DNA of 64,000 nt from Escherichia coli O157:H7 (GTDB lineage: Bacteria; Pseudomonadota; Gammaproteobacteria; Enterobacterales; Enterobacteriaceae): the NCBI RefSeq assembly GCF_013167455.1, contig NZ_CP038328.1; one strand, given 5' to 3'. The first letter of the stretch is position 1, and every line of letters begins with the position of its first letter. A program made the position numbers. Below, piece by piece: positions 60,001-63,000 of this stretch.

Positions 60001-63000
60001 TTTTGTCAATTTTTTGGATGTCAGCAACTGATTAAACATATTCCCTGACCTGCCGCCACCAATGTACGACCAGCGCCCCCACATACGCAGTTTCCCCTGT
60101 ATCCAGATGCTTTCCAACGTATTGAGTCGAAGATGTTCTCCGCTTTTTCCGGTATTTGTTGGGTAAATCATAGAATGCCTTTCTCCCTCCAGATTTCCTG
60201 TGTGCGGAAAACGCCCTCCGCGTGCATCAGGCGCAATTCTTCTTTGGTGTAATCGCTGGTTTTTACCCGCCCGTCGATTAAATCGTGGCACGAGCTACAG
60301 GCAATTGCCGCCTGCATATCGTGTGGTTTTGTCGCTGTTCCACACGTCCCCGCCAGCCTGTAATGCGCCAGCACGGACGTTTCGGGATTGTGATTGCAGT
60401 AGCCAGGAATTCTGACTGTACACATCTGACCTTTTGCCGCTTTACGTAAATCCACCATTACGCAAACTCCAGTAGCTGCGCGGCCACATTTTCGACTTGT
60501 TCCGGAGAGGAAAATTTACGGAACAGGATCCAGTTCCACAGTACATTCAGCACAGATTTATAAACCTGCTGAAACTCGGTTTCGTCCATATTCGCAAACG
60601 CGATGGATTTCGCCCTGCGCCCACGGCTACCGTCCGGATAAAAATGCTCGGTGTAAAATCCGGCCTGAATGGTTACCCACTCGCGGAAAGCCTCAAACGA
60701 CTTTAGCAATGCCGTATCCCGGGTTCTGCGTGTCGCAACGGTATTCAGATATTGCTCTGCGGCATCACTCAGGGCTGGAGTATGTTCCCGACCTACTGAT
60801 TCGCACAGGAAATCAACGAAACCGGACACCAGTTCTCGTTCGCGAGGCGTGATCGCCCCACCGTTCGGAGTCCAGTAATCGAATCCCAGTTGCAGGAGTT
60901 TGAAAAAACGCTTGTGGAATGCGTAGTTACGCACACGCTTAAAGTCTGCGTGTATCCACTCACCGATTTTGATTTGATGCAAAAAATCGCAACTCTCCGG
61001 CGTCGCCGGGAGAAGTAATCCGGAAGAGGTTTGTTTGACCAGTTGTATATGCGCCATCGTAGTTCTCCGCTGGCGCAGTAGAATGGGTGTTCAGCCCGTT
61101 ATGTAGTATACCAGAATTAATGCCAATACTAACAGGATGCTCTGACTCGCAATTCATCCAGCAGTTTATCATTTCCCATAATGTCACTTACCCTCATCGG
61201 TAAAAAAATTGCCTTTCGACCATTACGATACATCATTGATTTTGGGGTTTCAGGGAAGTAATCCATTTCGACTATAACTGACAGGTCATCACGACGTATG
61301 ACTGCGTATTTGCAACTAAATAGTTTCTTTATTTTTTCCACGATGCCTCCGAGTTTATAAGTACAAACGGTTATATCCACATAGAGACAAAAATATTAAT
61401 CTGAAAAATATTTATTTCACGCCGTATATTTGATTATTTAATGTGCAGGTACAATGACTTTTATTTTTTGTTGTGTATATAATCAAATATATGGTTATTT
61501 TTCACCCTGCGCATTCAGCGCGCAACAAAAAACCCGCCGAAGCGGGTTAAGTGCGGGTGCGTTGAGGATGCCTGACACATCAGAGGTGGCGAGGGATTTC
61601 TCCCCCGCCAGGTCTCTTACTCCTCAGGTTCGTAAGCTGTGAAGACAGCGACCTCCGTCTGGCCGGTTCGGATTCGTACCTCGCAGAGGTCTTTCCTCGT
61701 TACCAGTGCCGTCACTATGACGGTTAAACAGATGACGATCAGGGCGACTAACATCGCCTTTTGCTGCTTCATAGCCTGCTTCTCCTTGCCTTTCGGCACG
61801 TAAGAGGCTAACCTACGTTTGTGAAGCATAGATTGGGCCTCAGATTAATGTTAAGCGTCTTGCAGGACGCGTAATGTTAACTGGGGCTTTTCTCTATCTG
61901 CCTTTTGGTGTTCATGCCTGAGGCAGATAGCCTCAAGCACCCATTATGATTTTAACCAAAGTCTTTGTATCTATAAAGAGGCACAATATTACTCGATATA
62001 TCATCATGTGTGCGCCTTATTCCAAACATTTTGGAAACAAAGCGTTCCCTCACTCCCGACATATCCAGTATCTGCTTCCAAGAAGATATATCCAGCAATT
62101 CAACTGCACAGGAAAGTAAGCGAGGTTTTTCCTCAGGGATTAACTCATCCCCCATCTCTCCTTTAATCGTCCCTCTTTTATTTAGATGGATAAATCCCGT
62201 TCTCATTTGTTGTGGCGTAATCAGCCCCAAAACCGTAGCACGATAAATACACATGCGAAGACTGATTTTCCATCGTTCTTTGAAATTAATTAGTGCATTC
62301 CAGTCAAGATGCGATCCTCGCATTTTAGGAAATTCATTAACGAACGAAACTCTAGGTACAAGGAATGCGCTCGAAAAATAATCCGCATGATGTTCTGTAA
62401 TTTTATCCCCTGTTATAATCCCTTCATGCAAAACAAGATGCCCCAGTTCATGACCGAGATCTGAGCGAAATCGACACACACTCTTTTTCGCGGAATTTCT
62501 AATTATCAATGGGCGTTTACTATTAATAGTAAACGCATCAATACGATCATCCACGCCAGATACATGAGCAACAACAACCCCAATACTTTCCACGAAATTA
62601 ACCATTGAAGATATCGGTCCCAGCCCCAAACCCCAATACCTTCTACAGGCCTCGGCAATTCTTTCAATATCTTCATCGGAGTTCAAAGGTAATCCGGACG
62701 TATCAGGAAAGTTCAATTCTGGAAGAACTATTTCTGTTTCCAAACACTTTACAAACTGCTCCAAAATTTCAGCTCGAGCCAGAATACTATTAGTTAAGGA
62801 CTGCGTCCTTGATCTCTTGCTTCTGAAATGGCAGTTCTCGCTGTCTAATGGTGATTTCCTTCCAGTGAAGAAAAACGACTCTTTAACATCCAGATAATCT
62901 GCAAGAGCTGTCAACATCTGAGATGAAGGGGGATAACCACGCTCTAACTTGTTTATAAATTGCCGAGTCACCCCCAAAGCAGTAGCAAGCTCTTCGCCCG

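Follow-up and report, generated by a model that had tools for sequence, protein, structure and literature searches.

The hok/sok modules are textbook type I toxin-antitoxin systems. A member of this family was analysed in a 64,000-nucleotide stretch of Escherichia coli O157:H7 (NCBI RefSeq assembly GCF_013167455.1, contig NZ_CP038328.1), called the window here, in which positions 61942-61525 of the minus strand very probably constitute an intact hok/mok/sok cassette of the hokD/hokW subgroup within a lambdoid prophage. The cassette is an ordinary, complete copy of a well-known module, and its biology is already known.

The system hokW-sokW, of which the window cassette is a paralogue, was described in the Sakai prophage Sp5 of E. 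coli O157:H7 by Takada et al. 2021 (PMC8621323). The 51-amino-acid (aa) HokW was toxic by itself and was neutralised by sokW, with a partial dependence on RNase III and Hfq. [quoted passage not shown] Like the window cassette, hokW-sokW lies in a lambdoid prophage and has a 51-aa Hok, the same leader architecture, the -10 box TAACCT and a Sok RNA of about 71 nucleotides (nt). Among the published hokW-sokW oligonucleotides, YO-406 matches window positions 61769-61790 and YO-349 differs at one of 25 nt, whereas the sokW probe YO-592 has 4 mismatches to the window in 30 positions, most of them in the loop. The Sok 5' tail and the target loop differ between the two loci. The toxins also differ at the C-terminus, which reads ...VFVDYESEK in HokW and ...VFTAYEPEE in the window Hok. 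In contrast to hokW-sokW, the window copy has a RosmerTA pair as upstream neighbour and is known from sequence alone.

The hok/mok/sok system of R1 (parB), from which the metastable 5' hairpin concept and the element definitions of the hok folding pathway come (PMC9841398), shares with the window the gene order, the tac/fbi and ucb/dcb elements, the metastable hairpin and the Sok-target (SokT) hairpin. Its Sok promoter occupies the same position, with TTGCGC-17-TATCCT in R1 and TTGCCT-17-TAACCT in the window, where the -10 box is weaker. The 3' ends of the Sok RNAs are also alike (GGGGCUAUCUUCUUU in R1 and GGGGCUUUUCUCU in the window). However, the R1 element resides on a conjugative plasmid and the window element in a prophage, the two Hok proteins are only 47% identical, and the window Sok hairpin is longer than that of R1 and exceeds the Rfam consensus by about 16 nt.

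Two loci of E. coli K-12 are of further interest for comparison. The hokD (relF) gene of the Qin prophage encodes nearly the same toxin, PGAP calls the window protein HokD, and K-12 HokD was listed among previously characterised toxic controls in a preprint that also reported an enrichment of hok in prophages (10.1101/2025.08.07.668861). In the window, the Tyr47 codon of Hok is TAC followed by G (61632-61634, minus strand); the same TAC-G codon is reported to be recoded to Cys by TadA-dependent adenosine-to-inosine editing in K-12 hokC, hokD and hokE (PMC12214031). K-12 hokD has reportedly lost canonical toxin-antitoxin components by rearrangement (PMC12214031), whereas the window locus keeps leader, mok, Sok and fbi, and judged by these elements it can be regarded as the intact counterpart of K-12 hokD. 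The second locus, hokC/mokC/sokC (gef), is about 75% identical to the window in DNA over the whole cassette, scores 118 bits with the Rfam model RF01794, and likewise has mok in frame with hok, giving a 69-aa MokC. It differs from the window cassette in its shorter Sok hairpin and in its recognition loop, and it sits not in a prophage but at a chromosomal core locus by dnaJ or an insertion sequence element.

Elements of the hok mRNA

The sequence elements, their pairing potential and their conservation can be read directly at the window locus, which contains all elements of the hok folding pathway as published (PMC9841398; Table 1). Conservation was assessed in alignment A1, whose 72 distinct copies were taken from prophages in IMG/VR, from chromosomes and from plasmids, together with hokC; these homologues are 75-100% identical, mostly 88-100%, with hokC at 75%.

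An earlier note on this DNA, made from the sequence alone, had proposed a hok-type cassette with a mok-like leader open reading frame (ORF), a fold-back mRNA and a cis-antisense Sok gene, and this interpretation was supported. The 51-aa Hok peptide that it reported was recovered as an ORF at 61772..61617 on the minus strand, preceded by the Shine-Dalgarno (SD) sequence AAGGAG. The product is a small hydrophobic toxin of about 50 aa of the Hok/Gef family: the Pfam profile HOK_GEF (PF01848, E 1.8e-23) is covered at positions 1-42 of 42, and the N-terminus reads MKQQKAMLVAL (the ORF start being written MKQQKAMLVALIVICLTVIVTALVTRKDLCEV). The NCBIfam Hok subfamily model gave E 3.8e-13, with a score of 49.1 bits that lies below its curated cut-off of 73. 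The commonest Hok sequence among the homologues differs from the window Hok at residue 9 only (I vs V). The in-frame upstream ATG with a 70-aa mok-like product, also reported in the note, is found at 61829 (ORF 61829..61617). It opens an upstream overlapping mok with its own SD, and both this ATG and this SD are kept in 72 of 72 homologues, with G104, G105 and C106 at the mok SD invariant.

The transcript would begin at G61942, a position of the hok +1 that we infer by homology: position 1 of the Rfam model aligns there, and BLAST homology to thousands of hok loci begins there. The putative hok promoter ends 6 nt before this +1, its hexamers lie within the 3' end of the rmrA-like gene of the RosmerTA pair, and most homologous loci have a conserved promoter of the same geometry, TTTGCG/TTGGCG-17-TAGAAT-6 nt-GGG. 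At the other end, the 3' terminator of the earlier note was found again as a hairpin with a T-run at 61548-61531 on the minus strand.

Folds were computed for RNAs of 30, 60, 140 and 412 nt and for 3'-truncated transcripts. The 419-nt transcript reaches -176.8 kcal/mol, compared with -129.2 +/- 6.0 kcal/mol for shuffled sequences (z = -7.95). In the minimum free energy (MFE) fold of the full-length RNA, the first 12 nt form a 12-bp long-range helix with fbi, which sits just upstream of the terminator; this tac/fbi helix is 98.6% paired in the 72 homologues. For the first 30 nt alone, the MFE is -19.6 kcal/mol, and the underlying inverted repeat I5 is 90% complementary. When the first 60 or 140 nt are folded, tac pairs instead with AAGCCCC, as it also does in the Rfam consensus. 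The resulting tac stem-loop is 97.9-99.8% paired in the homologues, with compensatory AU<->GC and CG<->UA changes. The 5' inverted repeat that had been noted at 61880-61935 is this stem of the hok leader; CTATCTGCC/GGCAGATAG belongs to a longer repeat I1, with arms at 61873-61903 and 61921-61951.

The 140-nt fold consists of the tac stem and the SokT hairpin and matches the Rfam consensus structure. In the SokT hairpin, the mok SD GAGGC pairs with dcb GCCUC (61808-61804), the mok AUG lies in the upper stem and the loop is variable; the segment occurs in 22 sequence variants, each of which retains the hairpin fold. The helix between ucb and the mok SD (helix 5) is 98.7% paired in the homologues, and 4 of its pairs have changed on both sides. 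Three alternative leader folds were found in this way, namely a closed form with ucb/mok-SD pairing, an open form with tac/ucb and mok-SD/dcb pairing, and the metastable 5' hairpin. By analogy to R1, the 3'-untranslated region (UTR) stem-loop is likely the protective 3' hairpin of the processed (truncated) mRNA (PMC9841398).

The prophage setting proposed in the earlier note is confirmed by the RefSeq annotation of the identical region, where ydaT/ydaV-like replication genes, DUF1367/1364/1133 genes, a tRNA, a holin and a lysozyme surround hok. A stretch of 601 bp of the locus occurs at 100% identity in many Shiga-toxin-producing E. coli (STEC), including O157:H7. In these identical genomes, the RefSeq annotation comprises only the coding sequence (CDS) "hokD: type I toxin-antitoxin system toxin HokD", without mok or Sok.

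Placement of the antisense Sok RNA

The covariance-model search that had been suggested was carried out, and the Rfam model RF01794 ("sok") matched 61942-61767 on the minus strand from end to end (model positions 1-157, 120.1 bits, E 8.5e-27). In the window, in the R1-type locus L088 (232-403, plus strand) and in the K-12 hokC locus L004 (301-453, plus strand), the model matches the hok-sense strand, with the hok AUG as its last positions, and no match was obtained in the leaderless hok copy L015. RF01794 is a model of the leader of the hok mRNA, by which the Sok-complementary region can be located but not the strand of Sok. The match was therefore rejected as the position of the antisense RNA, as the model ends at the hok AUG on the hok-sense strand, and relying on RF01794 alone would put the antitoxin annotation on the wrong strand.

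The earlier note had held that the antisense RNA could not be placed confidently by eye. Judged by fold and homology, Sok can be placed on the plus strand at about 61822-61893, downstream of TTGCCT-17-TAACCT. After the -10 box, the plus strand reads ACGTTTG-TGAAGCATAGATT and continues into a long hairpin that closes with CTGGGGCTTTTCTCT. The predicted RNA would start at about 61822-24 and end with the hairpin and U-tract at about 61891-95; it consists of a single-stranded 5' tail of 11-13 nt (UGAAGCAUAGAUU) and a long hairpin that ends in GGGGCUUUUCUCU. RNAs of 68-74 nt between these limits fold with -29 to -31 kcal/mol. The R1-type plasmid locus L088 is collinear, with TTGCGC, 17 nt ending in GTAAGAGGC, TATCCT, a further 7 nt and an RNA ending in GGGGCTATCTTCTTT.

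The match to hokW-sokW is the strongest evidence for this placement. The hokW probe YO-597 (CCTTGCCTTTCGGCACGTAAGAGGCTAACC) is identical to window positions 61784-61813, and the Sok promoter region is identical to that of sokW across the stretches spanned by published oligonucleotides (PMC8621323). In that system, a "promoter-less" mutant in which TAACCTA was changed to GAGCCGG lost its antitoxin activity, and northern blots revealed sokW, whose complementarity to the hokW 5' UTR spans 71 nt (PMC8621323); the predicted length of the window Sok agrees with this figure. At the level of sequence, the predicted antisense RNA thus has its own promoter and overlaps the translation-initiation region of mok. 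The lack of an antisense promoter or terminator, which the earlier note had named as an argument against its interpretation, does not apply at this level, because both a Sok promoter and a terminator hairpin were located on the plus strand.

Table 1. Features of the window discussed in the text, with their positions, strands and the observations on which they are based
Feature	Position	Strand	Basis or remark
Putative hok promoter, TTTATA (61977-72), 17 nt, TAAAAT (61954-49)	61949..61977	-	Promoter scan, 9/12 match
Predicted full-length mok-hok mRNA, about 412-418 nt, G61942 to terminator U-tract	61525..61942	-	Rfam, BLAST, fold
tac element GGGUGCUUGAGG, mRNA 5' end	61931..61942	-	Pairs with fbi in full-length MFE fold
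Metastable 5' hairpin of nascent transcript, UGCUUGAGGC-UAUCU-GCCUCAGGCA	61914..61940	-	30-nt fold; inverted repeat I5
tac stem-loop, open conformation; includes CTATCTGCC...GGCAGATAG	61883..61942	-	Rfam helices 1-2; 60- and 140-nt folds
ucb / anti-SD GCCCCAG, pairs with mok SD when closed	61881..61887	-	Full-length MFE fold, nt 56-62 with nt 100-106
mok SD, GAGG	61838..61841	-	8 nt upstream of ATG 61829
Sok-target (SokT) hairpin	61803..61841	-	140-nt fold, Rfam consensus
Hypervariable block with the 5' tail of Sok, the top of the target hairpin and mok codons 2-6	61814..61842		Highest column entropy in 5' half
mok ORF, 70 codons, in frame with hok, giving N-terminally extended Hok	61617..61829	-	ORF list
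hok SD, AAGGAG	61782..61787	-	9 nt before ATG; columns 156-161 invariant or nearly so
hok CDS, 51 aa	61617..61772	-	Pfam PF01848 E 1.8e-23; PGAP HokD (WP_000813269.1) in identical genomes
3'-UTR stem-loop GGCGGGGGAGAAAUCCCUCGCC	61588..61609	-	Stable in all folds; helix 17 with compensatory changes
fbi element CCUCAACGCACCC, complement of tac apart from one bulged C	61555..61567	-	Full-length MFE fold; helix 1
Intrinsic terminator hairpin AACCCGCTTCGGCGGGTT, then T-run to about 61525	61531..61548	-	Terminator scan
Sok promoter, -35 TTGCCT (61786-91), 17-nt spacer, -10 TAACCT (61809-14)	61786..61814	+	Sole exact match in the window
Predicted Sok RNA, about 70-74 nt, ends +/- 3 nt	61822..61893	+	Fold, homology
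STnc560	20911-21124	-	Rfam, 282 bits, above gathering score
AgvB anti-GcvB small RNA	59076-59137	+	Rfam, 96.5 bits, above gathering score
STnc100	59138-59330	-	Rfam, 150 bits, above gathering score
tRNA	59417-59476	-	Rfam, above gathering score

Conservation and competing explanations

The cassette is widespread in the species. Out of 5,426 complete E. coli genomes, 5,368 gave BLAST matches to its 419 nt at a coverage of at least 80%; the matching places per genome numbered 4 in the median and 12 at most, and the cassette also occurs on many plasmids. Among the 72 homologues, 96.1% of the paired cells of the 5'-leader (open-form) model and 95.2% of those of the full-length model can pair, compared with 32-48% in a control in which the partners were slid by 1-3 columns. 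Six pairs of the 5'-leader model and 16 of the full-length model have changed on both sides, and none of 500 shuffles reached values as high. This conservation points to a structure that has been maintained and is not an independent proof of it. As a separate observation, the locus L014 carries a partial second hok leader (mok SD through the hok SD region) 70 nt upstream of the +1 of a complete cassette, an arrangement that suggests recombination between hok copies.

Several points weigh against the reading of the locus as an intact and Sok-regulated cassette. The covariation is modest because the homologue set is close, and the tac/fbi elements are almost invariant and show zero double changes; owing to this near-invariance, they speak neither for nor against structure in the covariation test. 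The MFE folds of 3'-truncated RNAs of 355, 358 and 361 nt were without the open tac/ucb form. A demonstration of the switch by thermodynamic prediction alone is for this reason not claimed, and the closed-to-open switch is proposed from the folds of the 60- and 140-nt fragments and from homology. The Sok transcript of the window locus is a prediction, and its -10 box agrees with the consensus at 3 of 6 positions. A plus-strand promoter prediction over 61760-61900, as the earlier note had advised, gave a divided result: the generic sigma-70 and terminator scan of 61300-62200 reported no plus-strand site in 61760-61900, and the hexamers TTGCCT-17-TAACCT were found at 61786-61814. The generic scanner missed Sok because its -10 box matches at only 3 of 6 positions and its terminator hairpin is longer and more bulged than this scanner accepts. 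Taking the negative scan as an absence of Sok was rejected, since the R1-type and sokW promoters share equally weak hexamers. [quoted passage not shown]

The last two points also bear on the idea of a silent relic that, like the chromosomal hok loci of K-12, has recognisable elements but is unexpressed or escapes control by Sok, and that persists only by hitch-hiking in the prophage. In that strain, hokA, hokC and hokE have been inactivated by insertion elements and other copies by rearrangement (PMC12214031), and at the window locus the rmrA sequence replaces the usual hok promoter. Part or all of the leader is moreover absent from 8 of the 80 IMG/VR loci (L015, L019, L023, L028, L032, L040, L043 and L068), leaving hok without leader or Sok and fused behind another ORF. 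In 7 of these 8, homology begins with the hok SD, so that tac, mok and Sok are missing; L019 is homologous from query position 101 onwards, and in L015, hok lies behind a 142-aa ORF in a 90-aa extended frame. These leader-deficient copies resemble the rearranged K-12 hokD. Against a relic, all functional elements of the window copy are intact and visibly constrained, the SDs, the start codons, tac, ucb and dcb being invariant. Its Sok promoter region agrees with that of a working locus (hokW-sokW), a promoter-like TTTATA-17-TAAAAT lies at the correct distance, and the 419 nt of the cassette are 100% conserved in many STEC genomes. A silent relic is thus very unlikely.

The in-frame extension of hok is present, as the earlier note had stated, and is not a distinctive feature of this locus, as the mok frame varies among the 72 homologues. 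Relative to hok, mok is in frame 0 in 55, in frame +2 in 13 and in frame +1 in 4 of them. In frame 0, the products are 69-70 aa long, K-12 mokC included; in frame +2, mok has 19 aa and its TGA overlaps the hok ATG; in frame +1, it has 68 aa of unrelated sequence, and Hok is essentially unchanged across all frames. The Mok peptide sequence is accordingly not conserved among the homologous loci. In R1, it is the act of translating mok that matters and not the Mok product (PMC9841398), and the variable mok frame agrees with this finding; a coupling of hok translation to mok at the window locus would be expected by analogy. The 70-aa in-frame product as a distinctive fusion toxin was rejected on this frame variability. 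That the real toxic product is a 70-aa Mok-Hok fusion, with the extension as a functional N-terminal domain instead of a ribosome-delivery leader, could draw on the prevalence of frame 0 and on the fact that ribosomes starting at the mok AUG necessarily make the entire Hok sequence here, but it is hardly credible given the close relatives with other frames and an unchanged hok, the position of mok codons 2-6 in the most variable part of the locus, the dispensable Mok product in R1, the invariant AAGGAG SD and ATG that hok retains for itself, and the toxicity of the 51-aa HokW alone (PMC8621323).

The hypervariable block (Table 1) occurs in 20 variants among the 72 homologues; over about 19 nt, their median edit distance is 6. 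This variability suggests a diversification of Sok specificity. A comparison of blocks within genomes covered the only two multi-copy genomes among the fetched loci; the co-resident copies L024/L025 and L011/L060 differ in the block, but random pairs differ in about 90% of cases, so that this gives no evidence either way.

Neighbouring genes and proposed role

Upstream of hok, a RosmerTA pair adjoins on the same strand (window 61952-63752, minus strand) as two overlapping genes in the order rmrT then rmrA, and the rmrA stop lies 10 nt before the hok +1. Its assignment comes from PADLOC matches to RmrA (E 6.4e-107) and RmrT (E 1.7e-18) and from the Pfam domains HTH_3 and Peptidase_M78 (M78 zinc-peptidase), as expected of an rmrA product; by this family match, the pair is a putative defence system. 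A read-through from rmrTA into hok would be possible because no terminator lies between them and the hok promoter is situated inside the rmrA 3' end. Downstream of hok, an 83-aa ORF (61129-61380, minus strand), where RefSeq has a 70-aa hypothetical protein, gave no Pfam or PADLOC match. The spacer between this ORF and the hok terminator is AT-rich and about 150 bp long, with plus-strand promoter-like sites at 61401-61483. The AgvB, STnc100 and tRNA genes belong to the prophage late region, about 2 kb from hok.

For the intact cassette, the following course of events is proposed. The minus strand would make a stable mRNA of about 415 nt from G61942, whose nascent 5' end would be locked in the metastable hairpin. 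In the full-length RNA, tac would pair with fbi and ucb would sequester the mok SD, so that the molecule would be closed to ribosomes and to Sok, and inert. Slow 3' trimming would remove fbi, tac would re-pair with ucb, and the SokT hairpin would display the mok SD and AUG. At this locus mok continues in frame into hok, and its translation would then drive the synthesis of the membrane-depolarising Hok. From TTGCCT-17-TAACCT, the plus strand would constitutively make an unstable Sok of about 70 nt, whose 5' tail would pair with the target hairpin, block the translation of mok, and hence of hok, and trigger cleavage by RNase III. Since Sok would silence mok translation, Hok would be made only when Sok synthesis stops. 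On loss or shut-off of the element, for example, or on DNA damage and prophage induction, the stable mRNA pool would be translated and the inner membrane depolarised. For processing, RNase III cleavage, Sok instability and toxicity, this scheme draws on R1 hok/sok (PMC9841398) and on hokW-sokW (PMC8621323).

By analogy to hokW-sokW, the cassette would most likely serve to aid the lysis of the host and the release of phage upon induction, with prophage retention or abortive infection as possible alternative roles.

Beyond this, it may be speculated, although we consider it rather doubtful, that the 29-bp block at 61814-61842 is a rapidly evolving specificity code by which the hok/sok copies of co-resident prophages are insulated from each other, and that hok is also co-transcribed with the RosmerTA pair. 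A literature search on hok/sok cross-talk in Faridani et al. 2006 yielded nothing relevant. If the insulation were true, each Sok would silence its own hok only, and conversely a prophage could neutralise the toxin of a rival; if the co-transcription were true, two toxin systems would be coupled.

The discovery value of the locus is small, as the near-identical prophage copy hokW-sokW has already been characterised by experiment. Its practical value lies in annotation, as a full element map is now available for an STEC prophage copy, and this map shows the intact form of the rearranged K-12 hokD locus.

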